Virus record (IMG/VR): IMGVR_UViG_3300020172_005639
Span: 32,001 to 96,000 of that record
Length of the DNA: 64,000 bases
Reading direction: 5' to 3' (one strand)
Source: a virus
Below the pieces are notes generated by a model. The model saw nothing but the letters and a program-made list of their open reading frames with translations, was not told the DNA's origin and did no database searches. Positions 2,441-62,000 of the stretch are shown piece after piece. A program made the position numbers and the translations under genes. The stretch's first letter is position 1. Every line of letters starts with the position of its first letter.

Positions 2441-3118
2441 CTAGGATTGTGAGGCGTGTGAGGTTTTTATGCGCTGCTTCAGTTTGCTCATGCCCACCTC
2501 TGTGAGCACCATAAATCCTAATCCCCTCATTTGGCAGTATTGATCGCATGCTGTCCATTTGGCTTTGTTCCTCGGCAACTGTGTTTGCTCTGAAGGCTTG
2601 ATCTCCCAGACCTCCACCCGTCCGTCGCTGAAGCTAACCTTCAGGTCTGGGTTGTACTGGTGGATTTGCCCTTCAAAGGTGTACTGCACCGAGAAGGGTT
2701 CGACTTCATATCCGATGACCTCGGGCATCGCCTCAAGGCACTCGTACACGTCACACTCCATCCCTGACCGATAGTGCATTTCCTTGCCGCCATTCTTGGT
2801 CGAAACCATGTATCCCTCCCTGAACATGGGGCGCCTCTGCTTTAGCCCCCCGTTGCTAGTTTTGTCCTTCCAAACGATCGCTTTCATCTGCCCGACTTTC
2901 GGCATTTGGTCGTAGGGATGCTTTGCCTTGAAGTGGGTCCTCACACACCTCACGGGACAGCCGCACCTCGCCAGCGGGCAGACGACGTACTCGCGTCCCT
3001 CCTCGTGGCTGTCTAGTATGTGTCCCTTGTACTCCTCGTAGCCATCGAAGTTGCATCCGCAGACGAAACATTGGTATCGCCTCTTTCCGGTTGGCTTCTC
3101 AAATGGGAGCTTGTTCAT
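2441..3118 (-). CDS. C2H2 zinc fingers fused to TnsA-N / T4 gp4-like PD-(D/E)xK endonuclease
   Basis: CFVC..H...H and CPLARC..H...H fingers; YRSGME, YNPD, EIKP, KW, LTE nuclease motifs. Confidence 0.8.
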   Translation of the reverse strand: MNKLPFEKPTGKRRYQCFVCGCNFDGYEEYKGHILDSHEEGREYVVCPLARCGCPVRCVRTHFKAKHPYDQMPKVGQMKAIVWKDKTSNGGLKQRRPMFREGYMVSTKNGGKEMHYRSGMECDVYECLEAMPEVIGYEVEPFSVQYTFEGQIHQYNPDLKVSFSDGRVEVWEIKPSEQTQLPRNKAKWTACDQYCQMRGLGFMVLTEVGMSKLKQRIKTSHASQS

Positions 3119-7865: not shown

Positions 7866-9257
7866 ATGCGAAACATCTACACTGAATTCTTGGACAAGGT
7901 AAAAAAAACCGATTTGGATATTGCGATCATAGGCGACGCTATGGTCGATGAGTATAGGCAAGTAGACATCAAGGGCATTTCCCCAGAGTTCCCGATCCCC
8001 GTCATGCGCGCACACGGCGAATCGCGCCTGCTTCCCGGTGGAGCAGCAAACGTCGCATATCAATTTGCAGGTTTCGGCAAGAAGGCCCCGCTGTATGCGT
8101 TTGTGGACTCGGAGGCTTCGACCGTGCTGGGTCAGTGCGGCGTCGACTTGAATCCATCACATGAGATTCCAACTCGGATACCTAGAAAGCAGCGTTTTTA
8201 CTGCGGCGACTTCCCTCTGACTAGGCTTGACATGGAGCAGGATGGCTACGGCCTTGTGCCCGAAGTACTTTGCCAGACTGCGAACGTTCTGTTCAGGTCG
8301 CTGCTGGACTATCGGTGCGTGATCTTTTCGGACTATGACAAAGGCGTTTTAAGGTATGCCACCCCAGAGCTGATACGGCGTTTCCCCATCTCAATCGTTG
8401 ACCCCAAGAACGGCAACCTTGAGCGATGGAGGGGCTGCACGGTCTTCAAGCCCAACGAGGCCGAGGCCTTGAGGCTGAGTGGCAAGAAGTGCGTTGTCGA
8501 GGCCGGAAAATACCTGAGCTCGTTTTTGGGCTCCAGCGTTGTGATCACGCAGGCCGGCAAGGGGGTCATGGTTTTCTGCGAAGGGCGCGACCCTGTCGTG
8601 GTGGCACCGCCCAGCAGGCTCGGTCGGCCCGAGTCAGTCATTGGCGCAGGCGACTGCTTCGTTGCTTTCCTGGCCATGTCTCTCTGCTGCGGATTCGACC
8701 TGCTGGAATCCGTGGAGATCGCATTCAGGGCGGGCACTATCTACGTCCGCAACAAGCACAATGAGCCTTTATCCCCGAGGAGGTTTCTGGCCGACGTCGA
8801 TCCCCTCGCTTCAAAGGTGATTGCAGAGGAGGATATACCACGAATTTTCTCGCAGCGCGACTACAGGCTGGTCTTCACCAATGGGTGCTACGATATGCTG
8901 CACCGTGGCCATGTGCACGGATTCCAGCATGTCCAGTCAACAGGGAGGCTGATTGTTGCCGTTAACGACGATGAGAGCGTTAGGGGTCTCAAGCCTGGCA
9001 GGCCCGTCCAGAGTCTTGAGGAAAGGTTGGAGATGGTGGCTTCTTGCCAGTTTGTGGACTTCGTGATTCCATTCAGCGATCCGACCCCTGAGCGGCTCAT
9101 TAGGCTGATCATGCCTGATGCGGTAGCAAAGGGCGAGGAGTATGCGGAGAGCGAGATAGTCGGGTTCGGCATAGCGCCTGAAATAATCAGGATACCCATG
9201 CTGAAGGGATTCTCCACGTCATCCCTGCTGGACAGGCTTTCGGCCAGAGCGAGATGA
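7866..9257 (+). CDS. hldE: Bifunctional heptose-7-P kinase / heptose-1-P adenylyltransferase
   Basis: GDAMVD, ISPEFPIPV, GGAANVA, SDYDKG, VDPK, GAGD; C-terminal FTNGCYDMLHRGH, KGFSTS. Confidence 0.9.
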   Translation: MRNIYTEFLDKVKKTDLDIAIIGDAMVDEYRQVDIKGISPEFPIPVMRAHGESRLLPGGAANVAYQFAGFGKKAPLYAFVDSEASTVLGQCGVDLNPSHEIPTRIPRKQRFYCGDFPLTRLDMEQDGYGLVPEVLCQTANVLFRSLLDYRCVIFSDYDKGVLRYATPELIRRFPISIVDPKNGNLERWRGCTVFKPNEAEALRLSGKKCVVEAGKYLSSFLGSSVVITQAGKGVMVFCEGRDPVVVAPPSRLGRPESVIGAGDCFVAFLAMSLCCGFDLLESVEIAFRAGTIYVRNKHNEPLSPRRFLADVDPLASKVIAEEDIPRIFSQRDYRLVFTNGCYDMLHRGHVHGFQHVQSTGRLIVAVNDDESVRGLKPGRPVQSLEERLEMVASCQFVDFVIPFSDPTPERLIRLIMPDAVAKGEEYAESEIVGFGIAPEIIRIPMLKGFSTSSLLDRLSARAR

Positions 9258-9260
9258 TGT

Positions 9261-9590
9261 TCAGGAGGGGATGCAAGCCTCGCACTTGCACCCCTCGCAG
9301 CATTGGTGCCCTGGGCAGCAGGAGCATGGGTCGCTATGAATCTTGAAGCACTTGCAGCAGTTTTTCGTGAGTCCGCAGCCCTTGCAACTTTTGCAGCTTT
9401 TGCAGCATATGCCGAGCTTTGAGCAAAAACAGCCATTTCCGCAACATTCGCAGCCGCAGTCGCATGGGACGCATGACTTCTTGATATAGATTTTTTTCTT
9501 CGTAAACCTCGCCTTGAAAATCTCAAACAGCGCCATGCCCGCAGCCACCGCAGATGAGATGGTCAGGAACTCTATCATGGCTTGTATCAT
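9261..9590 (-). CDS. Membrane-anchored Cys-rich metallothionein-like protein
   Basis: Hydrophobic N-terminal segment, Lys cluster, then 24 Cys in the last 70 aa; AGGGG SD. Confidence 0.65.
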   Translation of the reverse strand: MIQAMIEFLTISSAVAAGMALFEIFKARFTKKKIYIKKSCVPCDCGCECCGNGCFCSKLGICCKSCKSCKGCGLTKNCCKCFKIHSDPCSCCPGHQCCEGCKCEACIPS

Positions 9591-9636
9591 GCGCACCCCT
9601 ATGAAATGCTGTTTTATCACAAATATATAATCTGTC

Positions 9637-9918
9637 ATGGCTCAAAGAAAGAAGCACTTGGTCAACAAAGTCGCCAAGAAGCGATTTGATGGGAAGTGCA
9701 AGTTCTGTTCGTGTGATGTCTATGAGCTTCTTGATTTGCACCGGATCAAGGAGGGGTGTGACGGCGGGGCTTACACGGAGCCGAACACCGTCACTTGCTG
9801 TGCGAACTGCCACAGGCTGATACATGCCGGATATATAAAACTAGACAGGAAGTACCCCACTGTTTCGGGCAATTGGGTTCTTCACTACTGGATTGATGGG
9901 GTGGAGCACTATGACTGA
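9637..9918 (+). CDS. HNH endonuclease
   Basis: CKFC, LDLHRI, GGAY...N, CANCHRLIH. Confidence 0.85.
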   Translation: MAQRKKHLVNKVAKKRFDGKCKFCSCDVYELLDLHRIKEGCDGGAYTEPNTVTCCANCHRLIHAGYIKLDRKYPTVSGNWVLHYWIDGVEHYD

Positions 9919-11398: not shown

Positions 11399-11455
11399 GT
11401 TTTGATATGGCCTTATAATGCTTACAAGGGCTGTCGATAATTTGGGGGTTTGCAC

Positions 11456-13534
11456 ATGATCAGCGTATTCAAGAAAGTCGTCGGCGGGTTTGACCGAGCA
11501 TCGTTCCTTAACCTGAACACAGAGATGAGCTTCGCTGAGTATCTGGAGTTCTGCTATCAGAAACCTAGGCTGCTGCGAAACTCCTGGCAGATTATCTTCG
11601 ACATGATCACCGAGAAGGGCAGCGTGACGGTCGAGGAGTATCGCAAGACATACCAGAATTACAAGTTCTTCGACGATCCTGATTGCCCGATCATTGGCTT
11701 GGTCCCCATGAAGGACGCCATCGTCAAGTTTATCAAGGGGGCCGCAGGAGGCTACGGAACGGAGAAACGCATACTGCTGCTGCATGGCCCCGTGGGCAGC
11801 TCGAAGTCAACTTTGTGCAGACTAATTAAGCGCAGCATGGAGAAATACTCAAGGACCGACGCAGGGGCTTGGTATTCCTTTAAGTGGGTTAACTTGCCAA
11901 CAGGCGCCGAGGGAATCTACACGGATTCCGAGTGCTTCTGCCCGATGCACGAGCAGCCCCTGAAGCTCTTGCCCATCGATCTGCGCCGTGGCGTCATGGT
12001 CGAGTTAAACGCCATCCATGAGAAGCAGGTGGTTGAGGAGAAGCGCGCAGACCTTTACACCCTGAAGTGCGAGGACGAGCTCGACCCGCTCTGCAAGAGG
12101 TTCATGAGTCTTCTTCTCAAGAAGTACGAGGGCGACCTCGAAAAAGTCCTTGAGAACCATGTTCGCGTCGTCCGCAAGGTCTACAGCGAGGCCGACCGCT
12201 GCGGCATCGCAACTTTCCAGCCGAAGGACGAGAAAAACCAGGACAGCACAGAACTCACTGGCGACCTGAACTTCCGCCAGATCGGCAACTTCGGCAGCGA
12301 CTCCGACCCGAGGGCCTTCAGCTTCGACGGCGAGTTCTGCGTAGGCAACCGTGGGATCATCGAGTTCATTGAGGCTCTCAAGCTCGATACCGCCTTCCTC
12401 TACGACCTCCTTGGCGCAAGCCAGGAGCAGAGCATCAAGCCGAAGAAGTTCAGCCAGGTCAGCATCGACGAGGCGATTATCGCTCACACGAATGACCCGG
12501 AGTTTCAGAAGCTCAAGAGCAACCAGTACATGGAGGCTTTCAGGGACCGGACCACCAAGATTGATGTCCCATACACGCTGAAGTGGTCCGAGGAGTTGAA
12601 GATTCTTGAGAAGGACTACGGCCCAGGCAAGGTGCGCCAGCACATTGCCCCCCACACCTTGGAGATCGCCGCCCTATGGAGCATCCTCACACGCCTCGAG
12701 GACGACAAGGACGGCAAGCTCTCACTTGTTGAGAAGGCCGAACTCTATGACGGCAAGCTTCTGCCTGGCTGGACTGAGGACTCCGTGAAGGAGCTCAAGG
12801 ACAAGTGCCCCGACGAGGGAATGCAGGGCGGGGTGAGCGTCCGATACCTACAGGACAAGATCAGCAACTGCCTGTCAAACAACCATGACTACGTCAACAT
12901 GTTCATGGTCCTCAACGAGTTGCGCGACGGCCTCGAACACAGCTCGCTGCTGACCAACAAGGAGCAGGTCAGCCGCTTCATCACCTGCATAGACCTAGCT
13001 CTGAAGAAGCTGACCGAAATCCTTAAGACGGAGGTGCAAAAGGCACTTGTGGGCGACGAAGAAGCAATCAAGAGGCTGTGCGCCAACTATATCGACAATG
13101 TAATGGCCTATATCTCCAAGAGCAAGATCAAGGACTTGATCACGGGCCAGGATCGAAAGCCTGACGAGAGACTGATGCGGGCCATAGAGGAGAAGATCCA
13201 GATTCCCGATACTGGCTGCGATGACTTCCGCAGGCAGATATCCTCTTTCATCGGGCACCTCGCCCATGAAGGCAAGAGCTTCCATTGGGACAGCAACCCG
13301 AAACTGCGCAAAGCCCTAGAGGCCAAGCTATTTGAGGATGTCAAAGACACCATCAAGCTGTCTGCTCTAAACGTGAGCGGAGCAACGGTCGTCGACAAGG
13401 ACATTCAAGAGAAGATCGATGCAGTCAAGACAAGGCTCATCAAGAAGTATGGCTACAACGAGCGCAGCGCCACGGATGTCCTCGATTTCGTCGGGGGCAT
13501 ATTCGCACGGGGCGACCTCGCCGAAGACGAGTAA
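11456..13534 (+). CDS. prkA: PrkA/YeaG family AAA+ (annotated serine protein kinase)
   Basis: [64 protein letters not shown]. Confidence 0.95.
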
Positions 13535-13546
13535 CAGGAGGCACCC

Positions 13547-13762
13547 ATGAACAATCCGTGGCTCATAAGCGCGTCCAAAAAGAAGATGTTTGAGGAGATC
13601 GACCAAATCGCCCTCAACATCTGGGGGCAGGACGGCACGCTCAGCGACTTTTTCGCGTCCCTGACTGACGAGCAGACTGATTTTCTCTTCGCCATGAAGA
13701 TTAAGGACTTCGCAAGCGACCCAATGGACCTGTCCTGCGGGTTTGAGCTTATACAACCGTGA
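13547..13762 (+). CDS. Hypothetical protein
   Basis: Strong AGGAGG SD, 71 aa. Confidence 0.65.
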   Translation: MNNPWLISASKKKMFEEIDQIALNIWGQDGTLSDFFASLTDEQTDFLFAMKIKDFASDPMDLSCGFELIQP

Positions 13763-13769
13763 GGTCGAA

Positions 13770-14594
13770 GTGAAGCATAATCTGCTGCTGGGAAACTCCA
13801 AGGGCTACAGCCTCGGGCAAATCAGGAACTGGCTGGTCAGCGCAATCAGGCACAGGGGCTCCTACGACATAGGCCTGCTGCTCTGCGACAATGACGCCGA
13901 GATTCTAGACTTCTGCGACGCTCACGGAGTCTATGTCTACCCCCACTTCGACCTCGCCGTGAGCGGGCAGGAATACTACTTTGCAAGGTGCGGCCTAGTT
14001 TCTGAAACCTTGAAGAAGGCTTCGACCACATATGTTCTTGCGACAGATATTAGGGATGTGGTTTTCCAGCGCGACCCCTTTCCCGATTTTATGCAGGCCC
14101 TCAATTACAAGAAGGGCGTCCTTACATCCGAGAATATTCTCTTGAGGGACGAACCTTGGAACATTAAGGTCTATAAAGAGATATACGGCGAGGAGAGTTT
14201 TGACGCCGTGAGTGACAAGGAGGTAATCAACAGCGGCGTTGTTTTTGGCGAGTCTATGTTTCTTTCAGAGATATTTATGATGCTGCAGGACGCAGCTAGG
14301 ATGCCGAACGCATGGGCAGAGCAGCCAGTGCTCAACCATCTTTATCACCAGTTCAGCATCATCAGGGACAACTTCAGCCTCGCAAATGCTGACGACAGGC
14401 TGGTTGCCCATATCGGCGTTTCGGGTCCGACCAATTGGTGGGAGTCATGGAACTTCAAGAAAAATCTTATTCGGGGCAGATCCGAGATTTGCGACGGCAT
14501 AATCACCGACGCGCATGGTGAGGCTTTTGCCATAGCCCACCAGTATGACAGAGTGGATGAATGGCGTCAGCAGGTCGATGCCATTTACGCCTGA
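13770..14594 (+). CDS. Glycosyltransferase-like (GT-A) protein
   Basis: TDIRDVVFQRDPF, INSGV, EQPVLN, HQYDR motifs. Confidence 0.75.
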   Translation: MKHNLLLGNSKGYSLGQIRNWLVSAIRHRGSYDIGLLLCDNDAEILDFCDAHGVYVYPHFDLAVSGQEYYFARCGLVSETLKKASTTYVLATDIRDVVFQRDPFPDFMQALNYKKGVLTSENILLRDEPWNIKVYKEIYGEESFDAVSDKEVINSGVVFGESMFLSEIFMMLQDAARMPNAWAEQPVLNHLYHQFSIIRDNFSLANADDRLVAHIGVSGPTNWWESWNFKKNLIRGRSEICDGIITDAHGEAFAIAHQYDRVDEWRQQVDAIYA

Positions 14595-14626
14595 AGTCGC
14601 ACTGGGTTTTATTGAGGAATCAAAAC

Positions 14627-15832
14627 ATGTGTCCCAGAAGAATAGAAGAGGATCACAAAGACTTTCGCGACGTAGTTTCCGGGCGAATCCGTAGGGAGCT
14701 GAAGAAGTTCATCAAGAGCGGCCAGATAGTCCGTAAGAGGGGCAAGAACGGCAAGATCAGCATCAGCATACCGAAGATCGACATCCCCCACATAGTGTAT
14801 GGCTCAAACGGCGAGGGCGCAGGCCGTGGCCCAGGCCAGGAGGGCGACGTAATCGGGAAGGATCCGGCCAAAGGCAAGGGGAATGGCGCCGGACAGGGCG
14901 AGTCAGAGGGCATCATCATCAACTTGACCCTTGAGGATGTCCTCAAGTTCATGCAGGACGAGCTTCAGCTCCCGAACCTCAAGAGGAAGCCCAATGAAAT
15001 TTACGACGAGGTCAAGATCAAGTACAACAAGATCAGCCTCATCGGCCCCGAATCGCTGCGCCACAACCGCCGGACTCTGATGCAGACATTGAAGCGTCAG
15101 GCCGCCGAGGGAACGCTCGACAAGCTTGAACACGTGCCTGGGCTGAAGGATGCCGTTCGCATCCTCCGCCCCATCAGCGAGGACAAGAGGTACAGGCAGT
15201 ACAACGAGATCAAGCTTCCGTCCAGCAACGCCCTCATCGTGTTTGCGCGCGACGGCTCTGGCTCTATGGATGAGGCGAAGTGTTCCATCGTCAGCGACAT
15301 GGCTTGGTGGATAGACACCTGGATACGCAGGTTCTATGAACGGGTGGACAGGTTGTATGTCTGGCACGACAGCACGGCTATGGAGGTCGACGAGGACAAG
15401 TTTTACAAGTACAGGTTCGGCGGCGGCACGACTTGCTCCTCGGCCCTGAAGTTCATCACCAAGCAGTTTGAGAACAGGTACACGCCGGACAAGTGGAATG
15501 TCTATGTTTTCTACTTCACGGATGGCGAGAACTGGGGCGAAGACAACGAGGTCTTCATCAACACACTCGCAGACGATTTCAAGCCTCACGTGGTGAACTT
15601 CACGGGCATCACTCAGATACTCGCTGCCAGCTACTCTGACTCAGTCAAGTACCATGTGGATGAGGCGATCAAAAGCGGCAGGCTGGACGGTGACTGCGTC
15701 AGGACAGTATCGATCGGCGGTGCTACGGACAACAAGTCTGCGTGGTCTATTTCCTCGCTGAGCGAGGACAACCGTAACCAGCAGATCATCGAGGCGATCC
15801 AGCAACTTCTTGGGAACCCCGCAAGGGCTTAG
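14627..15832 (+). CDS. yeaH: YeaH/YhbH (DUF444) vWA-domain protein
   Basis: Gly-rich GQG region, LQLPNL, RDGSGSM (MIDAS), GGTTCSSA, WNVY.FYFTDGENW. Confidence 0.92.
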   Translation: MCPRRIEEDHKDFRDVVSGRIRRELKKFIKSGQIVRKRGKNGKISISIPKIDIPHIVYGSNGEGAGRGPGQEGDVIGKDPAKGKGNGAGQGESEGIIINLTLEDVLKFMQDELQLPNLKRKPNEIYDEVKIKYNKISLIGPESLRHNRRTLMQTLKRQAAEGTLDKLEHVPGLKDAVRILRPISEDKRYRQYNEIKLPSSNALIVFARDGSGSMDEAKCSIVSDMAWWIDTWIRRFYERVDRLYVWHDSTAMEVDEDKFYKYRFGGGTTCSSALKFITKQFENRYTPDKWNVYVFYFTDGENWGEDNEVFINTLADDFKPHVVNFTGITQILAASYSDSVKYHVDEAIKSGRLDGDCVRTVSIGGATDNKSAWSISSLSEDNRNQQIIEAIQQLLGNPARA

Positions 15833-15841
15833 GGGGACGCA

Positions 15842-17440
15842 ATGTCCAGCAAGTTTTTCCATGGCTCCAGCGTGCTTTTGGGCGACAACACCGTTCCAGG
15901 GGTGCAGCTTACTCCAGAGCTGAAGAAGTACATACCGATGGTCCTCAAGGCATGCAAGGATTGGGGGCTGGATTTCAATCCGACCGTGGTTCAACTGCTG
16001 ACCTATGACGAGATCAGCGAGATCGCAGCATACGGGGGATTCCCTGTCCGCTTTCCGCACTGGTCCTTCGGCATGGAGTACGAAGAGCTCCAGCGTGGGT
16101 ACGAGTTTGGTGCTCACAAAATATATGAAATGGTTATCAATAGCAATCCCTGCTATATCTACAACCTTTCGAGCAACACACTTGCGGACCACCTCACCGT
16201 GGTTGCGCACGCCACAGGCCACAACGACTTCTTCAAGAACAACATACACTTTTCAGCGACCGACACGAACATGCTGAACAAGATGGCCAACCACGGCACA
16301 AGGATTAGGAAGTACATAGCCAGGTGGGGCAAGGAGAGGGTTACTGAGTTCCTTGACCACGTCATGAGGCTCGAAACGCTCATCGATGGTGCAGAGGCGT
16401 GGACTGAGCGAGTTGTAAAGGAACCGAACATTCGCGATGAGCGCAAGTACAGGAAGCCTCACAGGCTGACCGTCGACAAGAGCCGCATGTACATGGAGCC
16501 ATTCCTCAACACCTCCGACTTCCGGCGGCGCGAGAACGAGAGGGTTCATGAGAGAGACCTTGCCGACGAGTTGGGAATCTTCCGGAACCCAACCAAGAAC
16601 ATACTGGGCTTTCTGCGCGACAATGCCCCGCTCAAGCCATGGCAGGCCGACATAGTCGCCATGCTTTATGAGGAGGCGATGTACTTCTATCCGCAGCGCC
16701 AGACCAAGGTTCTGAACGAGGGGTGGGCCTCCACAGTCGACAGCGTCATCATGGCTGAGAACGGGCTGATCGGCTTGGGACAGTCAAGTCACGACTGCGG
16801 CATAGTCGAGTATTCCGCCCATAAGATGGGCGTCCTTGGCGGCAAGTACTCGACCAACCCCTACAAGCTGGGCTACTATCTCTTGGCAGATATCAGGGAG
16901 AGATGGGATAAGGGCCGTTTTGGCCAGGAGTGGGAGGAGTGCACGGACCTGCACAAGAAGGAGAACTGGGACCTCCCGACCAATCTGGGCAAGGACAAGA
17001 TTTTCGAGGTCAGGAAGTACTACGACGACCTAACCTTCATCCATGAGTTCTTCACCGAGGACTTCTGCCGCAAGCAGGAGTACTTCTATTGGAAGCACTA
17101 CCCGAACGGCGAATACAGGATAGAGAGCAGGGACTTCCTGAAGATCAAGCGTTCGCTGATGAGAAAGCACATCAACGGCGGATTGCCCGACATCAAACTT
17201 GCAGAGCCGAACTATGCGGGCCGTGGCATCATGATGCTCCAGCACGAACACGATGGCAGGGAGCTGTATCTGCCCTATATCTCGGATGTGCTTGCTTCCA
17301 TCAGGGCAATCTGGAATAATGACGTGATCCTCAGCACCGTCGCCGACTCTGGTGAGGAGGTCATCTTCTACGCCAGCGGCTCGATGCCAGAGCGCGTCGA
17401 TAGCATGACGAGGAAAAAGTTCGACGCAATGATGGGCTGA
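15842..17440 (+). CDS. spoVR: SpoVR/YcgB family protein
   Basis: GFPVRFPHWSFG, KIYEMVINSNPC, AHATGHNDFFKNN, PQRQTKVLNEGWAS, NPYKLG. Confidence 0.95.
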   Translation: MSSKFFHGSSVLLGDNTVPGVQLTPELKKYIPMVLKACKDWGLDFNPTVVQLLTYDEISEIAAYGGFPVRFPHWSFGMEYEELQRGYEFGAHKIYEMVINSNPCYIYNLSSNTLADHLTVVAHATGHNDFFKNNIHFSATDTNMLNKMANHGTRIRKYIARWGKERVTEFLDHVMRLETLIDGAEAWTERVVKEPNIRDERKYRKPHRLTVDKSRMYMEPFLNTSDFRRRENERVHERDLADELGIFRNPTKNILGFLRDNAPLKPWQADIVAMLYEEAMYFYPQRQTKVLNEGWASTVDSVIMAENGLIGLGQSSHDCGIVEYSAHKMGVLGGKYSTNPYKLGYYLLADIRERWDKGRFGQEWEECTDLHKKENWDLPTNLGKDKIFEVRKYYDDLTFIHEFFTEDFCRKQEYFYWKHYPNGEYRIESRDFLKIKRSLMRKHINGGLPDIKLAEPNYAGRGIMMLQHEHDGRELYLPYISDVLASIRAIWNNDVILSTVADSGEEVIFYASGSMPERVDSMTRKKFDAMMG

Positions 17441-17441
17441 C

Positions 17442-17690
17442 ATGGAGGAAACTGACATGGAAGAGACTAATCTGCTCCTTACCCAGGAGTTCATCGCCTT
17501 CTCCGACAAGATAAAGTCTATCTTTGAAGAGAAAAGCTCTAAAAAGGCGGAACTCAAGGCCTTTTTTGAGAAGATCACCGCCGAGATTAAGGGGCTAGAC
17601 GCCAAGGCCAAAGCCGCCGAGGACGATTTTAACGCTTGGAAGAAGTCCCAGTCGGCCAACCAAGAGGCTGCCCCCAAGACCAAGTCCTGA
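17442..17690 (+). CDS. Hypothetical coiled-coil protein
   Basis: 82-aa charged helical ORF abutting spoVR. Confidence 0.65.
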   Translation: MEETDMEETNLLLTQEFIAFSDKIKSIFEEKSSKKAELKAFFEKITAEIKGLDAKAKAAEDDFNAWKKSQSANQEAAPKTKS

Positions 17691-17707
17691 ATGCCGTAAG
17701 GGCCGAT

Positions 17708-19105
17708 ATGCAGCCTAAGATAGTCGGCTTTGAGCACCTCCATCTTCACACCGATAACTCCCTCCTCGATGGTTACGGGATGGTGGAGGAGTATGCTCAT
17801 CGCGCCCCCAAGATAAACCAGAAGTTCCTTACAGTCAGTGACCACGGGATGCTGGGGGCAATCCCGAGGCAGATCAGGGCTTGCGAAAAGGCGTGCGAGT
17901 CTAAGGGCAAAGACGCCCTGAGTCCGATCTTTGCGTGCGAGCTCTATGTCAACAGCCTGCAGCCAGAATCTGACAGCCTAGATGACGTGAGGGCTTTCAT
18001 TTCCACTTTGGATGATTCGCAAAAGTCTAGGTTCAAGAGCAGCGCGCACCTTCTAGCCATCGCCTACAACGAAACGGGCTACAAGAACCTTGTCCGGCTT
18101 TCCTCCTGGGGCTGGACGAGGGGCTTCTATGGGCGGCCTCGAGTGAATCACGAGCAGCTCCTGAAGCACAAGGAGGGATTATTCTTCACGAGCTGCTGCT
18201 ACAACAGCGAGATAGGCCGTGCGTTCGACTCAGGCGGCGAGGAGCTCGGGTTCGACATGGTCGAGCGCTACATCGAGATGTTTGGCAAGGATCATTTCTT
18301 TCTTGAGATCATGCTGCTTGACTTCAAGAAGCAAAAACCCTATGACGCATTCATCATCAAGGCGCACCAGAAGTACGGACTGAAGGTCATAGTGACACAG
18401 GACGTCCACTACTGCAACAAGGAGGACAGCAAATATCAGAGGCTCATGCTGATGGTGCAGACCGGCAAGACCGTAAGGCAGATAGAGGAGGCGCTGCGCG
18501 AGAACAGCGGCTATGACGCGTTTGAGTTGCAGGACAGCAACCTTTGGATGAAGTCGGAGGAGGAGCTAAATGAGAAGTGGGTTTCCGACTACATGGAGGT
18601 CGTTCCCTATGAGGTCTTCCAGCAGGCAAAGCTCAACACCGTCGAAATCTGCAACAAGGCCAAGGGCGTTAAGCTTGATAGGAGCCTTAAGTTGCCGAAC
18701 ATACCCGACGCAGATGACATACTGCGCGACGAGGTAAAGAGCGGCTTCTTCGCTAGGCGACTTCCCAAGAACAAGGTATACCTTGACAGGCTCAAGGAGG
18801 AGCTGAGCCTGATCACGCGCAAGGGCTTCGCAAGCTACTTCCTTATCCAGAAGATGATGACAGACGAGGCTAGGCGCGTCTGCTCCGACATCATAGGTTT
18901 CGGCGATGGAACCCAGGCGGTCGGTCCCGGGCGTGGTTCTGCGGTAGGCGCGCTTGTCTGCTACTGCCTCGGTATTACTTCCGTCGATCCAGTTAGGGAA
19001 GGACTGCTCTTCAGCCGATTTCTTAGTGAGGCCAGAGGTGGTAGGTCGCTTCAGTTGAGGTTCAGGAACATGGACCCGCTGCCGCCCGATCAAGCATTCA
19101 GCTGA
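17708..19105 (+). CDS. dnaE: DNA polymerase III alpha, N-terminal part (PHP domain + first palm segment)
   Basis: HLHLHT..SLLDG, SDHG, CELY, HLLA, SCC, DVHY, GFASYFL, GPGRGSAVG, LLFSRFL; ends before PDID. Confidence 0.93.
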   Translation: MQPKIVGFEHLHLHTDNSLLDGYGMVEEYAHRAPKINQKFLTVSDHGMLGAIPRQIRACEKACESKGKDALSPIFACELYVNSLQPESDSLDDVRAFISTLDDSQKSRFKSSAHLLAIAYNETGYKNLVRLSSWGWTRGFYGRPRVNHEQLLKHKEGLFFTSCCYNSEIGRAFDSGGEELGFDMVERYIEMFGKDHFFLEIMLLDFKKQKPYDAFIIKAHQKYGLKVIVTQDVHYCNKEDSKYQRLMLMVQTGKTVRQIEEALRENSGYDAFELQDSNLWMKSEEELNEKWVSDYMEVVPYEVFQQAKLNTVEICNKAKGVKLDRSLKLPNIPDADDILRDEVKSGFFARRLPKNKVYLDRLKEELSLITRKGFASYFLIQKMMTDEARRVCSDIIGFGDGTQAVGPGRGSAVGALVCYCLGITSVDPVREGLLFSRFLSEARGGRSLQLRFRNMDPLPPDQAFS

Positions 19106-21126: not shown

Positions 21127-21154
21127 ATTATATATGTAACACGGGCCGAATCAA
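21127..21154 (-). promoter_or_regulatory. Sigma70-like promoter for tmRNA (TTGATT-16-TATAAT), overlapping a + strand TATATA box
   Basis: Motifs read directly on the - strand. Confidence 0.45.
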
Positions 21155-26528: not shown

Positions 26529-29273
26529 ATGAGCAAGGAATCGTTCGTAGCCATTTGCGAGGATGCGTTCAAGTCGAAGGGCTTGCAGAAAAACCCTAGG
26601 TTTGTCAAGCGCTTCCGCTGGGAGATCGATGAAATCCTCGGTAAGGAGGATCACCAGTACTTTCTTGACCTTGTTGAGAGCAAGACGCGCTACCCCATGA
26701 ACCAGAACAACCTTCTGGTCTGCTGGCTGCTGGGCATAGTTCCCGACTTCGACATAGAGAGAGAGCCTGCGAGCGTCTTCACGGGCGACTTGCCCGATAT
26801 CGATATTGACTACCTCCCTGAAATCAGGGAGTACCTCAAGAACAGGTGGTCGATCGAAAAATTTGGCTCAGAGCACGTCTGCAATATCGGCAGCTATACT
26901 ACGTTCGGAATCAAGTCGGCGCTGATCGACATGGCCAGGGTCCACGAGGCTCCCCGTGAGGAGGTCATGGCCATCACCAAGAACCTAGAGGACAAGGACG
27001 AGGACGGGAAACTGTTGACCTGGGACTCTGCAGTCCGCATCCACCCCGAGCTCAAGCAGTATGCTGAAAAGCATCCAGAGGTCGCTGAGGCTGCTAAGAA
27101 CTTGCTGAACAGGAACCGTGCGATGGGTGTCCATGCCGGTGGCCTTATCATATCGAGCATTCCGCTACACGACCTAGTTCCGTTGGTGAAAAGAAAGGAG
27201 GCACCGCAGGCTTCCGCTTGGGTTGAAGGTCTGCACGGGCAAGAGCTCCAGCCCGTCGGGCTGGTGAAGTTCGACCTTTTGGTGATCAGTAACCTACTCC
27301 AGATTGCCAGATGCTGCGACCTCGTCAAGAAGCGCCACGGATTGCAGGGGATTTGCGCAAGGCCAGAGGAGTCCGACTGGACAGACGTGCACGCTTGGCG
27401 AGACAACCCCAAGTCCCTCGCAATGGCGAACGAGGGCGACCTCAAGTGCATCTTCCAGTTCGACAGCGAAGGGATGCGCGCCCTCGTGAAGTCTGGCGGC
27501 GTGAACAGGTTCGAGGACATGGTGGCATACTCTGCTCTCTTTAGGCCAGGTTGCTTGGCCAGTGGCATGACGAAGCTTTACATTGAGCGCAAGCGGGGCA
27601 GGGACTCCTTTGAACTTCACCCGATCATGCAGCCCATACTCGAGAAGACTTACGGCATCATGGTCTACCAAGAACAGATCATGCAGATCCTCCATGTGGT
27701 CGGGGAAATTCCCCTCAAGGACTGCGAGGCAGTAAGGAAGGCAATCAGCAAGAAGAAGATCGAGCAGTTCATCAAGTACAAGGAGCAGTTCGTAATCAAT
27801 GGCCAGCGCAAGCTCTCGTCCAGCGAGAAAGAACTAGAGGCGCTGTGGAGCCAGATCGAGTCATGGGCCGGCTACGGCTTCAACGCGTCTCATGCCGTCG
27901 CATACACCTATATCTCTATGTGGCTCCTTTATCTGAAGTCCCACTACCCCTCGGAGTTCTACACGGCGATATTGAGCTGCGAAACGCTTAGTGACAAGAT
28001 CAAGGACGTGAAGATGGAGGCTCGCATCCACGGCGTCGAGATGCACAGGCTAGACGTGAACAAATCCTCGCCCAACTTCAGCCTTGTCAACGAGGTCATC
28101 TACTATGGCTTCCAGAACGTGAAGGGGATCGGAGAGGGCCCGGCGCAGAGGCTCGCAGCAAACGCGCCATACAAGTCCTTCGAGGACTTCGTTGTCAGGT
28201 TCGGAACGGACGCCGGAGTGCTCAAGCCCATAGTCGCGCTGCGCTGCTTCAGGGACTGCGACCCTGTCACTTTGTGGAAGTTTGCAGATCACTACAAGGA
28301 CAGACTTAAGAAGATAGAGGACAGGCGCAAAAGGTTTGAGTCTTCGCTCTTGGGATATGAGGAGGAGTTGCAGTCGCTGCTTCCTGGATTTCCCAAGAAG
28401 TTGTCTGATTTTAATGGCGAAAACCCGTTCGATCACAGGATTTTCAAGGAAAAGTTCGACATTGACCAGGAGATCCTGACCGTTAAGACAGTTCCCTGTG
28501 ATCTGGGGGAGGGAGAGGCTGTCGTTGAGAACGAGTTCGTGGACGTGCCTGACGGTGATGCCACGATAGAAAGGATCGTTAAGAAGCATTACAAAAAGAT
28601 AGAGGTCAAAAAGACTTTTAACAGGTGGAAGGAGCTCAAGAAGCTGTGGGTCAAGCGCCAGAAATCCATAGACAGGCAGAACGCGCTGGCAAATGACGAG
28701 ATGCCCAAGCTGGTTCACTTCAACCCAGAGGACCATCCAATCGACGGAGAGTTGCTGCGGGAGCTCCGCAACCCCGTAGCGTGCGAGGAGAAGTTCTACG
28801 GGTTTGCTTGGATTCATGAGCTGGAGCGAAGTCCAGACTATACGGGCAACAAAACTTTCTCCGACTGCAAAAACGTTGCCGAAGGCGCAGCCTACCCCGT
28901 GGAGATGAAGGTCAAGAAGACGGTGGAAGCCAAGAGCCGCAAGGGTCATTCCTACCGTCAGGTCATAGCAGAGGACGCCACCGGGGCAGAGGCGAAGATC
29001 AATGTTTGGTCTGATGACTGGTCTCGCTGGCAGTCAGAATTAAAGGTGGCTAACTTACTTAGAGTAAGGCTGCAACCGCCCTCTGGCGGCTTCAATACCT
29101 ACACTCTGGAGTCCAACCAGCAGGGCAAGTTCCGTGGAAGGCTCCGGTACAGGGACAAGGACGATGATCCGAGAATCTTCGTCATGAAGCCGGGCGTCAA
29201 GGAAGACGAAAAGTTCATGACTGACGAGGAAGTCCTTGCGCAGTTCGAGAAATGCAACGTGGAAAACCCATGA
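26529..29273 (+). CDS. dnaE: DNA polymerase III alpha, C-terminal part (catalytic palm, thumb, fingers, HhH, OB)
   Basis: DLPDIDID, GVHAGG, LVKFDLL, IFQF, ALFRPG, TYGIMVYQEQ, YGFNASHA.AY, KGIG; own GGAG SD. Confidence 0.93.
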   Translation: MSKESFVAICEDAFKSKGLQKNPRFVKRFRWEIDEILGKEDHQYFLDLVESKTRYPMNQNNLLVCWLLGIVPDFDIEREPASVFTGDLPDIDIDYLPEIREYLKNRWSIEKFGSEHVCNIGSYTTFGIKSALIDMARVHEAPREEVMAITKNLEDKDEDGKLLTWDSAVRIHPELKQYAEKHPEVAEAAKNLLNRNRAMGVHAGGLIISSIPLHDLVPLVKRKEAPQASAWVEGLHGQELQPVGLVKFDLLVISNLLQIARCCDLVKKRHGLQGICARPEESDWTDVHAWRDNPKSLAMANEGDLKCIFQFDSEGMRALVKSGGVNRFEDMVAYSALFRPGCLASGMTKLYIERKRGRDSFELHPIMQPILEKTYGIMVYQEQIMQILHVVGEIPLKDCEAVRKAISKKKIEQFIKYKEQFVINGQRKLSSSEKELEALWSQIESWAGYGFNASHAVAYTYISMWLLYLKSHYPSEFYTAILSCETLSDKIKDVKMEARIHGVEMHRLDVNKSSPNFSLVNEVIYYGFQNVKGIGEGPAQRLAANAPYKSFEDFVVRFGTDAGVLKPIVALRCFRDCDPVTLWKFADHYKDRLKKIEDRRKRFESSLLGYEEELQSLLPGFPKKLSDFNGENPFDHRIFKEKFDIDQEILTVKTVPCDLGEGEAVVENEFVDVPDGDATIERIVKKHYKKIEVKKTFNRWKELKKLWVKRQKSIDRQNALANDEMPKLVHFNPEDHPIDGELLRELRNPVACEEKFYGFAWIHELERSPDYTGNKTFSDCKNVAEGAAYPVEMKVKKTVEAKSRKGHSYRQVIAEDATGAEAKINVWSDDWSRWQSELKVANLLRVRLQPPSGGFNTYTLESNQQGKFRGRLRYRDKDDDPRIFVMKPGVKEDEKFMTDEEVLAQFEKCNVENP

Positions 29274-30341: not shown

Positions 30342-30971
30342 ATGGACAGAATAGAAATAATCAATCGGCTCATATCGGAATTCTGCCTCGACAGGTATCT
30401 GGAAATCGGCGTCTGGAGGGGCGACTGCTATTTAAGAGTCACATGTAAAGAGAAGGTTGGAGTGGATCTATTCCCAATCTATCAAGATGGCGTGCACGCC
30501 ATGACAAGCGACGAATTCTTCAGGACTTACCAAGGCCCCAAGTTCGATCTGGTTTTCATAGATGGCAACCATGAATCAGAGCAGGCATACCGAGACATCA
30601 GGAATGCTTTGGGAAGCCTCAGCGACCATGGTTTCGTGGTTTGCCACGACTGCTGCCCTCTCTCCGAGATCGAGCAGCGCGTCCCACGAGAGCAGGATCT
30701 CTGGACTGGAGACGTTTGGAAGGCCATACATTCTTTGCGAGTCGACAGGGATGACGTGAGTGCAACAACGTTCGACTGTGATTATGGCTGCTGTGTCATC
30801 TCAAAGTTCCCTTCAGTCGCTTATCGTCCACCGACCAAATCCATTGACTGGTCATACTATCAAAGCTATAGCAAGGATTTCTTGAACCTCAAGCCTGCAT
30901 CCTATTTTGAGCAGTTTATTTTGAATCTCAAAGATGCAATCGCAAAAAACCTACAGAACAGAGATATATAA
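30342..30971 (+). CDS. Class I SAM methyltransferase (Methyltransf_24-like)
   Basis: YLEIGV, MTSDEFF, FDLVFIDGNH, HDC, WTGDVWKA. Confidence 0.85.
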   Translation: MDRIEIINRLISEFCLDRYLEIGVWRGDCYLRVTCKEKVGVDLFPIYQDGVHAMTSDEFFRTYQGPKFDLVFIDGNHESEQAYRDIRNALGSLSDHGFVVCHDCCPLSEIEQRVPREQDLWTGDVWKAIHSLRVDRDDVSATTFDCDYGCCVISKFPSVAYRPPTKSIDWSYYQSYSKDFLNLKPASYFEQFILNLKDAIAKNLQNRDI

Positions 30972-41195: not shown

Positions 41196-41227
41196 GTTTC
41201 TTGGCCACAGCAAGAGAGAGAGAGCAA

Positions 41228-41800
41228 ATGACATCCGGTTTTTACGGCAGGGGCAAGCGCTTCGGCAGGGACACTAAAGATCCCCGGCAGCAGGATGAGC
41301 ACAGGATAAACTACCACATTCGCGTTCCGCAGATACGAGTGATTCGCGAGGAAGAGCAGCTCGGGGTCATGTCCACGGATGAGGCCCGTCGCATTGCCCA
41401 AGACGAGGGCATGGACCTTGTTGAGATAGTTCCCACTGCAAAGCCTCCCGTCTGCAGAATCATGGATTACGGCAGGTACAAGTTTGAGCAGGCAATCAAG
41501 AAGAAAGAGGCCGCAAAAAAGCAGAGGGAATCGCAGTCTCAGCTCAAGGAGATTCGATTAAGGCCTGGCATCGCCGAACATGACGCAGAGATAAAAGTCG
41601 CTCAAGCCAAGAAATTCCTTGCCGAGGGCAACAAGGTGCAGTTCTTTCTCCGGTTTCGTGGTCACAGGGAGATGGCACTCAAGGAGCAGGGTTTCAGGGT
41701 CGTACAGAAAATCATAGAGATGCTTTCTGAAGAATCTATTCTAGAGAGGTCCCCAAGCATGGAGGGCCGCTCGATTATTTGCGTGCTCTCACCCAAGTAA
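41228..41800 (+). CDS. infC: Translation initiation factor IF-3
   Basis: RIN..I....IRVI, QLGVM, DLVEI.P.AKPPVCRIMDYGRYKFE, LKEIRL, KFL.EGNKV, FRG.RE. Confidence 0.95.
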   Translation: MTSGFYGRGKRFGRDTKDPRQQDEHRINYHIRVPQIRVIREEEQLGVMSTDEARRIAQDEGMDLVEIVPTAKPPVCRIMDYGRYKFEQAIKKKEAAKKQRESQSQLKEIRLRPGIAEHDAEIKVAQAKKFLAEGNKVQFFLRFRGHREMALKEQGFRVVQKIIEMLSEESILERSPSMEGRSIICVLSPK

Positions 41801-43355: not shown

Positions 43356-43718
43356 ATGGCAAAGAGCAAGATTATCACCACCGATAACATACTGCCCCTG
43401 ATCGGTTCAGACCCGGTCGTGTCGAGGGTGGTTGGGGTCAAGCCCTGCGGTTCGCAGGTGCTTGTCGAAATCCTTACACCACAGGAGATGATGGGCACGA
43501 CCCTCGCAGTCGGCGACAAAGCCGACCTGAAGGTGCCGCTTCAGGGATACGTGAAGGCGGTCGGGCCGGGATTCAAGGGCGAGGACTACGGGTTCAAAGT
43601 CGGTGATCGCGTCTTGATCTCCGGCAGCGGCATCATGGCTCCAGAGTATGACGACTGCCACCGCACTCGTTTCTTTATGGAGCCACACGCAATCAAAAGC
43701 GTATTACTTGAGGAATGA
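43356..43718 (+). CDS. groES: GroES-like co-chaperonin
   Basis: VKPCGSQVLVE, QGYVKAVGPG, FKVGDRVL. Confidence 0.75.
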   Translation: MAKSKIITTDNILPLIGSDPVVSRVVGVKPCGSQVLVEILTPQEMMGTTLAVGDKADLKVPLQGYVKAVGPGFKGEDYGFKVGDRVLISGSGIMAPEYDDCHRTRFFMEPHAIKSVLLEE

Positions 43719-44785
43719 AACCAGACTACTACGCCGTTCTCGGGGTGAGCAAGGAGGCCACTCAGGACGAGATCACCAAGGCTTACCGCAAGGGAGCCAA
43801 GACTCACCATCCCGACGTCAACCCAGGCGATCCCGAGGCGCCCAAGCGCTTTCAGGAGATTCAAGAAGCACACGATATCCTGTCCGACCAGAACAAGCGC
43901 GCGCAGTATGACGCTAGGTCGTCGGGTATGTTCTTCCGTAGGCGACCAGATGGTGATGGATCGCCATTCGGCAGCCCCTTCATGGACATGATGAGTGAGG
44001 TCTTGTCGCGCAAAAGCTTCAAAGGCAAGAACGCTCACGCAAAGGTCGATATCGACCTTCGGGATGTCATGTCGGGATGCACAAAGACCCTGGTTGTCAA
44101 CGTCCGTACCAAATGCGATGACTGCAAGGGCAGCGGGGTCGCAAGCACCCAGTCTTGCGACCAATGCCATGGCTCTGGTTTTTTGGTGGTGAACAACGCT
44201 CCATTCGAGTTTCGCCAGAATTGCTTCGGCTGCCAAGGCACTGGCAGGGTTAACCCCCAGCCATGCGAAGCGTGTCGAGGCATGGGGGCCAAGGGGGAAC
44301 ACGAAAGGTCGATCCAACTGCGAATTCCAGCCGGCATAGAAAGCGGCATGAGCATTCGCATTCATGGTCAGGGCGAGGAAAGCATCAACGATGGTTCGCT
44401 AGGCGATCTTATAGTTGCTGTGTCCGTGAAGCCCCACCCTGTTTTCACAAGAGATGGCGCAGACCTTCATATGGACGTCCCTGTGACCTACACACAGCTA
44501 GCGCTGGGGACCGACCTCCCAATTTTGGGGTTGCATGGGGAAGAAATGGTCGTGAAAGTGCCATGCAGGGCCCCGTCCCATGCCAAACTCAAGCTCAAGG
44601 GCAGGGGTCTGGCCTTCCCAAACGGCATCGTTGGCGACCTTTACGTCACGATCAAGCTCGAAACTCCCAAAGAGATTTCTGGAAGGCACGCCGAGCTTAT
44701 CGCAGAGCTCTCTAGCATTGAGTCCACGCTTAAATTGCCGAGGCGTGAAGCATGGATAAAAAACATGGCAACTGTCAATACATAG
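43715..44785 (+). CDS. dnaJ: DnaJ (class A) chaperone
   Basis: DYYAVLGV, HPD, four CxxCxGxG repeats, IPAGI, GDL. Confidence 0.93.
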   Translation: MKPDYYAVLGVSKEATQDEITKAYRKGAKTHHPDVNPGDPEAPKRFQEIQEAHDILSDQNKRAQYDARSSGMFFRRRPDGDGSPFGSPFMDMMSEVLSRKSFKGKNAHAKVDIDLRDVMSGCTKTLVVNVRTKCDDCKGSGVASTQSCDQCHGSGFLVVNNAPFEFRQNCFGCQGTGRVNPQPCEACRGMGAKGEHERSIQLRIPAGIESGMSIRIHGQGEESINDGSLGDLIVAVSVKPHPVFTRDGADLHMDVPVTYTQLALGTDLPILGLHGEEMVVKVPCRAPSHAKLKLKGRGLAFPNGIVGDLYVTIKLETPKEISGRHAELIAELSSIESTLKLPRREAWIKNMATVNT

Positions 44786-52730: not shown

Positions 52731-52793
52731 ACAACTTAACACTTGTAAACACTTTATTTACACTTTCTTTACACTGAGACACTGATGAACACT
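52726..52793 (+). repeat. Seven ACACT repeats at 8-13 bp spacing
   Basis: At 52726, 52739, 52749, 52760, 52771, 52779, 52789. Confidence 0.8.
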
Positions 52794-53291
52794 TTTGAAA
52801 AACTTATTGAAGATCACATACCCGTAGCCAAGACCATCGCAAGAAGCCACAAGAGCAAGTACCATCAAATCTCGATTGACGAGCTTGAGGCTGCCGCACT
52901 TTATGGCCTCGTCCATGCCGCAAACAAGTTCGATGAAATTCGTGGCATACCCTTCATTAGGTTTGCGAGCAAGCGCATGTATGGTGCGATTATTGACTAC
53001 GTAAACGAGCTTCTGGTAGGTCCGAAGGGTGACAAAAAACTTGCCGAACAACTGCCGGAGGAAATCAAGACAGAGTCTGAGCAGAATTCTCACATCCATT
53101 TTGAGGAGTTGATATGTTTTCTGCCCAAACGCACGCAGTTTATCATGCGAAGGGTTTATGTCTTTGAGGATTCGCTGGCCGACATATCAAGCGTGTTGAA
53201 CATCGGTGAATCGAGGATAAGCCAAATAGTTGCAAAAGCTCGAAAGACCATAGAGGATCGTATCGGGAAATTATATGGCTCCGTGGCCTAA
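52785..53291 (+). CDS. RNA polymerase sigma factor (FliA/WhiG-like regions 2 and 4, region 3 largely missing)
   Basis: GLVHAANKFD..RG..F..FA..R..GAIID; LADIS.VLNIGESRISQI. Confidence 0.85.
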   Translation: MNTFEKLIEDHIPVAKTIARSHKSKYHQISIDELEAAALYGLVHAANKFDEIRGIPFIRFASKRMYGAIIDYVNELLVGPKGDKKLAEQLPEEIKTESEQNSHIHFEELICFLPKRTQFIMRRVYVFEDSLADISSVLNIGESRISQIVAKARKTIEDRIGKLYGSVA

Positions 53292-60371: not shown

Positions 60372-60516
60372 GGCTTACTTGATCTGGGATCGCATTACCT
60401 TTTCCCAAAAGCTGGAGCTTTTGAGCCTAGCTCGGAGAGCTTGCCCAGAAAAAGTTGGCTATAGGACGATTGATGCTGAATGGAGGCCCTCTTTAGATGA
60501 GGAACCCAATCCATGA
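60358..60516 (+). CDS. Small hypothetical protein, 52 aa
   Basis: MSLSEAYLIW...EEPNP fills the gap; ATGA overlap with clpS; not in ORF track. Confidence 0.45.
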   Translation: MSLSEAYLIWDRITFSQKLELLSLARRACPEKVGYRTIDAEWRPSLDEEPNP

Positions 60517-61945: not shown

Positions 61946-62000
61946 GAGCCACTTGGGAATAGTCTTCTTGATTTAAAGGCATATATAAGTCGGAGGCTTT

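Follow-up and report, generated by a model that had tools for sequence, protein, structure and literature searches.

The closest described counterparts of the protein reported here are the metallothioneins, a group that includes vertebrate MT1/2, the copper-thioneins of crustaceans and fungi, the bacterial SmtA/BmtA proteins and MymT; in vertebrate metallothionein, 20 cysteines bind seven divalent ions. Small membrane-associated phage proteins offer further points of comparison. The Pf3 coat protein is inserted N-out/C-in, and T5 Llp and T4 Imm/Sp are small phage lipoproteins or N-anchored proteins that block superinfection. In metagenome surveys, metallothioneins have been reported among phage or viral auxiliary genes (PMC12917443, with reference to Huang et al. 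2021; PMC13317609). We found no account in the literature of a membrane-anchored phage metallothionein or of a cysteine-rich family adjacent to hldE. Here we describe a phage gene, next to hldE, whose predicted product combines a putative membrane anchor with a tail of metallothionein-like composition.

The gene lies in a 64-kb window, the whole stretch of DNA analyzed here, which was taken from a 120.5-kb IMG/VR viral contig. CheckV puts the completeness of this contig at 28%, implying a genome of about 400 kb or more, and the contig, from a freshwater phage, has the genes expected of a huge phage. The set includes a PrkA–DUF444–SpoVR triad, a DnaE-type polymerase in two genes, ThyX, IF3, DnaJ, a GroES-like protein, ClpS, a sigma factor and PhoH (Table 1), and annotation of the contig with Pfam and PHROGs gave numerous glycosyl- and methyltransferase genes. 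DNA nearly identical to the contig is present in freshwater and lake metagenomes of several studies; the 22 runs listed included no RNA run. The closest GenBank phage is the uncultured phage LR756511.1 (595 kb), whose PrkA is 66% identical to that of the window; the latter is about 32% identical to the 'serine kinase' genes of Thermus phages. The first of the two DnaE genes carries the PHP domain and the start of the NTPase domain, and the second the remaining NTPase domain, finger and HHH; the 7.4 kb that separates the two contains a pair of minus-strand genes and genes for a glycosyl/methyltransferase, an AAA ATPase and a carbamoyltransferase. The best bacterial genome matches of the phage IF3 (42–52% identity) come from many phyla, with MAGs of Myxococcota/Kofleriaceae and Dormibacterota at the top, and because of this scatter IF3 gives no host signal. 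A search for pmoC (PF04896), sought as a link to phages of copper-dependent methanotrophs, gave no match, and neither did the control genomes.

The cysteine-rich ORF occupies exactly the space that hldE and an HNH endonuclease gene leave between them, as the lone opposite-strand insert amid plus-strand genes. By synteny, hldE is the convergent neighbor and the positional anchor of the family, and the HNH gene adjoins the cysteine-rich gene in three related loci as well (L002, L003 and L045). The stop codons of hldE and of the cysteine-rich gene are separated by 3 nt (window 9255-9263), and no terminator-like hairpin lies between them, so that the convergent transcripts must overlap; in several relatives, the two ORFs themselves overlap by a few bases. 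The longest version of the ORF starts at 9638 and encodes 125 aa. We prefer the start at 9590 because it is preceded by an AGGGG motif, with a GGAG-type Shine–Dalgarno sequence at equal distance in 9 of 10 family members inspected, because the more distant homolog P0002 starts at the matching position, and because gene callers chose the 109-aa version in 6 of 10 members of the nearest 90% cluster. The motif TTATATAT occurs five times in the window against 0.39 copies expected (9623-9630, 9831-9838, 21128-21135, 30964-30971 and 61981-61988). One copy lies 33 nt upstream of the ATG of the cysteine-rich gene and another 36 nt upstream of the gene at 21171, and TATATA is found upstream of 7 of 10 family members. 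We infer that TTATATAT is a candidate phage promoter element.

Table 1. Features of the cysteine-rich locus, of the surrounding window and of related hldE loci (window positions unless a locus is named)
Feature	Position	Strand	Remarks
CDS, 109-aa Cys-rich protein, predicted membrane-anchored	9261..9590	-	stop 9261-9263, ATG 9588-9590
Predicted transmembrane helix, residues 4-25, AMIEFLTISSAVAAGMALFEIF	9516..9581	-	Kyte-Doolittle and AF2
Basic juxtamembrane linker KARFTKKKIYIKK, residues 26-38	9477..9515	-	predicted positive-inside determinant
Conserved Cys-rich core, residues 40-81	9348..9473	-	common to short-form (74-80 aa) relatives
C-terminal Cys-rich extension, residues 82-109	9264..9347	-	8 Cys, conserved CCPxHxCC; long-form relatives only
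Shine-Dalgarno-like AGGGG	9596..9600	-	6-10 nt upstream of 9590 ATG
TTATATAT, candidate promoter element	9623..9630	-	in 46-nt divergent spacer common to HNH gene
hldE-like bifunctional heptose kinase/adenylyltransferase	7866..9257	+	Pfam PfkB and CTP_transf_like, PHROG 7878
HNH endonuclease gene	9637..9918	+	PHROGs HNH families; divergent neighbor
TnsA-like / phage endonuclease I-like gene	2441-3118	-	sits among plus-strand sugar-nucleotide and glycosyltransferase genes
PrkA / DUF444 (YeaH-like) / SpoVR triad, complete	11450-17440
DnaE-type DNA polymerase III alpha, two genes	17636-19105 and 26529-29273
Phage IF3, GroES-like, full-length DnaJ, sigma-70-type factor, ClpS	41201-41800, 43356-44785, 52785-53291, 60513-60821
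Lipoprotein-like occupant of the position next to hldE	L025:3859-4026	-
Lipoprotein-like occupant	L031:3877-4092	-
Lipoprotein-like occupant	L034:3857-4024	-
Lipoprotein-like occupant	L038:3907-4083	-
Lipoprotein-like occupant	L041:4320-4508	-
Lipoprotein-like occupant	L043:3849-4031	-

Comparison with the IMG/VR contig L002, which encodes a relative 77% identical to the window protein, showed 16, 12 and 47 nucleotide differences at the first, second and third codon positions, respectively. Within the cysteine-rich region 23 codons differ synonymously and 10 non-synonymously, and in the head region these numbers are 11 and 15. All 24 cysteines are invariant in four sequences, the window protein and its relatives at 77, 56 and 45% identity, and likewise among the 11 sequences of the nearest cluster, where P0024 is identical to the window protein; in the nearest 90% cluster the cysteine domain does not vary, whereas the helix does. 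The gene was found identical or nearly identical on contigs of four lake or freshwater runs from different studies, and three independent runs that span it entirely show it intact, with zero differences. Given its cysteine density, codon-position bias, invariant cysteines and intactness in independent metagenomes, we regard the ORF as a genuine gene under purifying selection.

One sequence departs from this picture. P0003, encoded on a JGI contig of 1.8 kb, shares 98% identity with the window protein in residues 1-64, where it has the change R28S, and continues after CDCGCE with 31 unrelated residues that include one cysteine and are encoded nowhere in the contig of the window. The R28S change (9507 C>A) is also found in run X12, on a contig that ends at 9463. 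P0003 may be either a natural allele that lacks most of the tail or an assembly chimera; being nearly identical up to that point, it indicates that the tail may be dispensable, unless its contig is chimeric. P0003 is also what could be cited for the view that the ORF is no functional gene, merely a chance or decaying reading frame within an intergenic gap. Set against the third-position bias of the substitutions, cysteines invariant across 19 sequences (see below), a conserved Shine–Dalgarno sequence, a position kept in many phage lineages and an intact gene in independent metagenomes, that view is almost certainly wrong and can be treated as effectively refuted.

Few relatives of the protein were found. 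A word-indexed search of 5.8 billion proteins returned three matches, and a HMMER profile search of 1.84 billion cluster representatives (E<=1e-3) returned four, one of them a 27-aa fragment. Another of the four, P0005 (1246 aa, E = 6e-4), was rejected as spurious, since it is a repeat protein without the cysteine-rich tail. With a wider profile built from 12 sequences, 13 clusters were found among the 5.8 billion proteins; none is named more precisely than 'hypothetical protein', none contains a Pfam domain, and all family members with DNA at hand are on viral (phage) or metagenome contigs. No Pfam family matched the window protein and three relatives at E<=10, and Pfam and NCBIfam gave no relevant match for 21-22 family members, apart from stray sub-threshold matches to the heads of a few relatives (E<=10). 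PHROGs had no match for the window protein, and no PDB sequence matched the family profile at E<=10; the composition filters of HMMER may hide weak matches in these Pfam, NCBIfam, PHROGs and PDB searches. Feature searches of the ESM Atlas, one with the whole protein and one with the tail, restricted to named clusters, yielded no match that could be used. Nothing was found by tblastn in 50,697 GenBank phage records, a result that is not evidence of absence because the low-complexity filter of BLAST probably masks the tail. Collectively, these searches place the window protein in an undescribed, tiny and phage-restricted family, outside every catalogued one.

The original prediction had named a homolog search and conservation of the cysteine pattern as its checks, and both the gene and its cysteine pattern proved to be conserved. 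Beyond the invariance of all 24 cysteines down to 45% identity, an alignment of 19 sequences, 30–77% identical to the window protein, retains 13 cysteines and one glycine throughout (C40, C43, C45, C47, C49, C50, C56, G60, C62, C63, C66, C72, C79 and C81). Two forms can be distinguished in this alignment: a short one of 74–80 aa, made of head and core, and a long one that adds a 28-residue extension with eight cysteines. H95 is invariant in the seven long forms, and position 85 is His in six of them and Cys in L003. The number of cysteines in the tail is 24, 27, 28 or 29 in the long forms and 17 or 18 in the short ones. Residues other than cysteine that are conserved in the close clade are G46, G60, G73, P93, H95 and D44/E48. 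The short-form relative P0008 (117 aa; seven contigs, the longest of 52 kb) apparently has two tandem hydrophobic heads of the type MS(K/N)W(N/I)DS before its cysteine core, which could be a duplication or a mis-called start that spans two genes.

The architecture first described for the protein, a hydrophobic N-terminal helix and a Lys-rich segment followed by 24 cysteines in 70 aa, was confirmed, on a strand (minus) that the original prediction had left unstated. From C40 to S109, 34% of the residues are cysteines, arranged in 5 CC, 7 CxC and 9 CxxC motifs when overlapping motifs are counted. This tail (70-71 aa) is rich in K, G and S, and contains two F, two H and no W or Y. When stop-to-stop ORFs of at least 40 aa in all six frames of the window were ranked by the maximum number of cysteines per 60 aa, the cysteine-rich ORF reached 21 and the next two, among those listed with at least 10, reached 11 and 10. 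A filter for a hydrophobic head followed by a cysteine-rich tail passed this ORF alone in the 120.5-kb contig. AF2 predicted a helix at residues 2-29, with a pLDDT of about 80 when four sequences were used and 91-93 when 19 were used, and no fold for the tail, where pLDDT stayed below 55 with either set. This pattern of a confident helix and a tail with no predicted fold is expected of a domain that requires metal; it is compatible with metal binding and is no evidence of it. The glycine at position 18 of the helix is invariant in the alignment of the four closest sequences.

The distribution of charges around the helix bears on the location of the tail. In the window protein, six K/R are found within 15 residues after the hydrophobic segment and none before it. 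The same layout recurs in the family: a hydrophobic head is present in 21 sequences, and in 18 of them the residues ahead of it include no K/R and usually one or two D/E (for example MIQAMIE, MSNWID, MNNFYEN and MDTTSE), whereas in 20 the 15 residues that follow it include two to six K/R. According to the positive-inside rule, an acidic N-flank combined with a basic C-flank is the signature of N-out/C-in proteins. The window protein shows one helix, a positive C-flank and no positive N-flank, and by pattern reading it lacks the basic n-region and lipobox cysteine of lipoproteins, features that were read in L025, L031, L038, L041 and L043, which encode proteins at the corresponding position in other phages. 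The charge layout thus predicts an N-out/C-in orientation and a cytoplasmic location for the cysteine tail of the window family, which is how the topology prediction proposed at the outset turned out. A tail in the cytoplasm would favor metal–thiolate clusters or a thiol-redox role over disulfides.

In order to see how the position next to hldE is used elsewhere, we took the best 80 of 563 viral hldE loci, by HldE alignment, and searched them all with one fixed filter. An ORF passed if it began with ATG, encoded 40-160 aa including a hydrophobic head, and contained no fewer than 8 Cys, with a Cys content of 15% or more beyond residue 25. Such an ORF was present in 24 of these 80 loci. It always lies on the strand opposite hldE and downstream of that gene, and in 16 of the 24 no more than 50 nt separate it from the end of the hldE match. 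HldE identity to the window's copy reaches 35% or more in 48 of the best 80 loci, and all 24 belong to this group; the 32 loci with HldE of 28-31% identity have none. In all 471 kb of the 80 loci only 25 ORFs passed the filter, namely these 24 and one antisense shadow, and none was found upstream of hldE. The count includes some redundancy, as L006 and L010 duplicate the contigs L002 and L003, and one protein is common to L019 and L020; it leaves out L032 and L033, where a cysteine-rich ORF is cut by the end of the locus, and L045, which has no hydrophobic head. Other related hldE loci have different genes at this position. In LR756511.1, an ORF with a head and a cysteine tail abuts hldE on the opposite strand.

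Homology among these occupants was assessed by scoring each against the profile of the window clade, together with 200 shuffles of its tail. For L008, L015/L019, L027, L011, L045 and L048, none of the 200 shuffles reached the real score, which indicates order-specific similarity to the window clade; L047 (2/200) and L039 (7/200) are counted in the same group. No order-specific similarity was detected by this procedure for L025, L031, L034, L038, L041, L043, L001, L030, L082, L012, L026 and L036. Not all of the occupants are demonstrably homologous. When five large related phage records were searched with the family profile, only G003 gave a match (the L011 ORF, E = 2e-6), and since the profile finds no match in LR756511.1, its ORF is a positional and compositional analog only.

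Six of the occupants, all among those lacking order-specific similarity, look like lipoproteins (Table 1). They are 55-71 aa long and consist of a lipoprotein-like signal peptide followed by 11-17 Cys in 36-50 residues. Read heuristically, the signal comprises an MK/MR n-region, a 12-17 aa h-region and a Gly at -1 before the Cys, a charge layout opposite to that of the window family. These proteins would be exported, and a cytoplasmic metal sponge would not fit them if all occupants shared one function. Taken together, small cysteine-rich proteins with a predicted tether occupy a conserved slot beside hldE across a broad group of large phages, a slot that is absent from the annotation resources Pfam, PHROGs and NCBIfam.

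We propose that the window protein is a single-pass inner-membrane protein with its N-terminus out and its C-terminus in, whose short acidic N-tail and single helix would hold the 70-residue tail of 24 cysteines at the membrane on its cytoplasmic side. Under the reducing conditions there, a tail so rich in cysteine and devoid of a hydrophobic core would be expected to fold only around soft metals, Zn(II), Cu(I) or Cd(II), as metal–thiolate clusters; by analogy with vertebrate metallothionein, it could bind about eight Zn or Cd ions, or more Cu(I). The protein may then play a membrane-tethered metallothionein-like role, as a sink or buffer for metals during infection and secondarily for oxidants and electrophiles. 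Reduced thiols, 34% Cys, K/G/S spacers, the lack of W and Y and the lack of a predicted fold make a metal–thiolate domain the simplest reading of the tail, and metal ligands are preferred to fixed disulfides because cysteine parity varies, His and Cys are exchanged at position 85 and H95 is invariant. The whole chain, from insertion through a cytoplasmic tail to metal–thiolate clusters acting as a metal and redox buffer at the membrane, is the best reading we can offer, one to which we would give not quite an even chance. Membrane insertion, orientation, metal binding and a benefit to the phage are all inferred from the sequence. Several observations count against it: the hydrophobic segment is only moderately hydrophobic (best Kyte–Doolittle 19-mer, 1.74) and carries two conserved Glu, the protein has no sequence match to metallothioneins, lipoprotein-type proteins occupy the same slot, and the P0003 allele exists. 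With only about 28% of the genome on the contig, moreover, missing partner genes are weak evidence.

That ultra-high-sulfur, disulfide-linked proteins have a similar composition also counts against this reading. In a different picture, the tail lies outside the cytoplasm, is disulfide-bonded and forms part of a small, moron-like protein tethered in the envelope, which might, for example, block superinfection or stiffen the envelope. The lipoprotein-like character of the six positional analogs fits this picture, as do the even number of cysteines in the window protein (24), the isolated position of the gene on the strand opposite to its plus-strand neighbors, an arrangement frequent in morons, and the rapid turnover of sequence, length and anchor type at a fixed position, as in arms-race genes of host–phage or phage–phage conflict. 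However, export would require 4-6 Lys/Arg to be translocated, given the basic residues that follow the helix in 20 of 21 family sequences; cysteine parity is not conserved among close homologs, one position exchanges His for Cys, and the lipobox-type proteins, which share no order-specific similarity with the window clade, may be unrelated. We therefore think a disulfide-bonded, external tail unlikely for the window protein, and note that the lipoprotein-type analogs keep such an exported alternative alive for the wider class of slot occupants. The tail might instead be cytoplasmic, as in our preferred reading, and serve not as a buffer but as a structural array of Zn knuckles or Fe-S sites that docks at the membrane onto a specific protein of the host or the phage, or onto nucleic acid, and so inhibits or recruits it. 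The evidence on topology and cysteine conservation is the same for both, and strictly invariant spacing with conserved residues other than cysteine is more order than a pure sponge needs; in addition, the cysteine domain stays invariant in the nearest 90% cluster while the helix varies. On the other hand, 34% Cys far exceeds what zinc knuckles or Fe-S sites need, no CxxCxxCxxxCP-type motif is present, AF2 gives no fold, and the gene neighborhood indicates no partner, since hldE and the HNH gene are on the other strand and have different functions. A docking array seems improbable to us.

The protein is small, and its cysteine-rich C-terminal 'core' behind an N-terminal segment also resembles a precursor peptide, in which the hydrophobic head would be a leader and the core would undergo modification (thioether, thiooxazole or similar) before its release. 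Leaders do not usually consist of a transmembrane helix and a Lys cluster behind it, though, and the genes for RiPP maturases, namely radical SAM (PF04055), MNIO (MbnB/TglH; PF05114) and YcaO (PF02624), are absent from the 120.5-kb contig as well as from among the neighbors in L002, L003 and L001; the NCBIfam and Pfam models of RiPP precursor families gave no match either. With about 28% of the genome in hand a maturase could lie elsewhere, and still we hold a precursor peptide to be very improbable.

A membrane-tethered metal buffer, then, remains our preferred reading of the window protein, and it invites a broader and more doubtful one of the slot as a whole. The slot might hold fast-evolving, position-locked genes for cysteine arrays that are tethered to the host membrane and serve there as metal traps made by the virus; the window family would sit on the cytoplasmic face and intercept Zn or Cu at the sites of its delivery or uptake by transporters, and the lipoprotein-type occupants would do the same on the periplasmic side. 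We regard this as a speculative proposal that is rather less probable than not. If it were true, the slot would represent a new class of phage auxiliary genes that manipulate the metal economy of the host, and the window family would include the first natural transmembrane-anchored metallothionein. For the window protein itself, metal binding by the tail would mean that huge phages manipulate host metal or thiol chemistry at the membrane. Where metallothioneins are displayed on cells in order to capture metals, a natural, compact, membrane-tethered cysteine array may also be of interest.

The locus can be compared with several known systems. Among small tethered proteins, the window protein may be likened to the chlamydial OmcA-type cysteine-rich outer-membrane lipoproteins and to T5 Llp and T4 Imm/Sp, from which it differs in the absence of a lipobox, in its opposite charge bias and in having no Pfam match to such families; in the positional analogs L025, L031, L034, L038, L041 and L043, a lipoprotein-like signal precedes a cysteine-rich mature part. 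The Pf3 major coat protein is likewise small and encoded by a phage, and its single helix lies between an acidic N-tail, also short, and a basic C-flank, which gives the N-out/C-in orientation. The analogy is one of topology only, as the two share no sequence similarity and Pf3 coat lacks a cysteine-rich tail.

The tail is most like the metallothioneins: about one third of its residues are Cys, in CC, CxC and CxxC motifs with Lys, Gly and Ser as spacers, aromatic residues are almost lacking, and no fold is predicted without metal. In size, cysteine motifs and paucity of aromatics it falls within the operational class of metallothioneins, and it matches no profile of the catalogued metallothionein families, whether Pfam and NCBIfam models or solved metallothionein structures. 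The 'animal-type' signature seen in the original prediction is thus a compositional resemblance only, because no sequence link to any metallothionein family was found even at E<=10, and we would call the protein metallothionein-like by composition only. The accompanying remark on the many Zn and Fe proteins of the window is correct, in that the window has a Zn ribbon, HNH, a DnaJ Zn finger, a 2OG-Fe(II) oxygenase and a metallophosphoesterase, but trivial, and says nothing about the cysteine-rich gene. SmtA-type bacterial proteins contain fewer cysteines than the 24 in 70 aa of the tail, and in contrast to metallothioneins generally, the window protein has a predicted transmembrane anchor, is encoded by a phage and has no detectable sequence relationship to them. 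With the viral metallothioneins reported so far it shares the idea of metal-sequestering genes carried by viruses; in those reports, the proteins are named by annotation and described without a membrane anchor, whereas the window family matches no annotated family. If its tail binds metals, the virus would encode a metallothionein-like protein that carries a membrane anchor of its own and is unrelated in sequence to known families.
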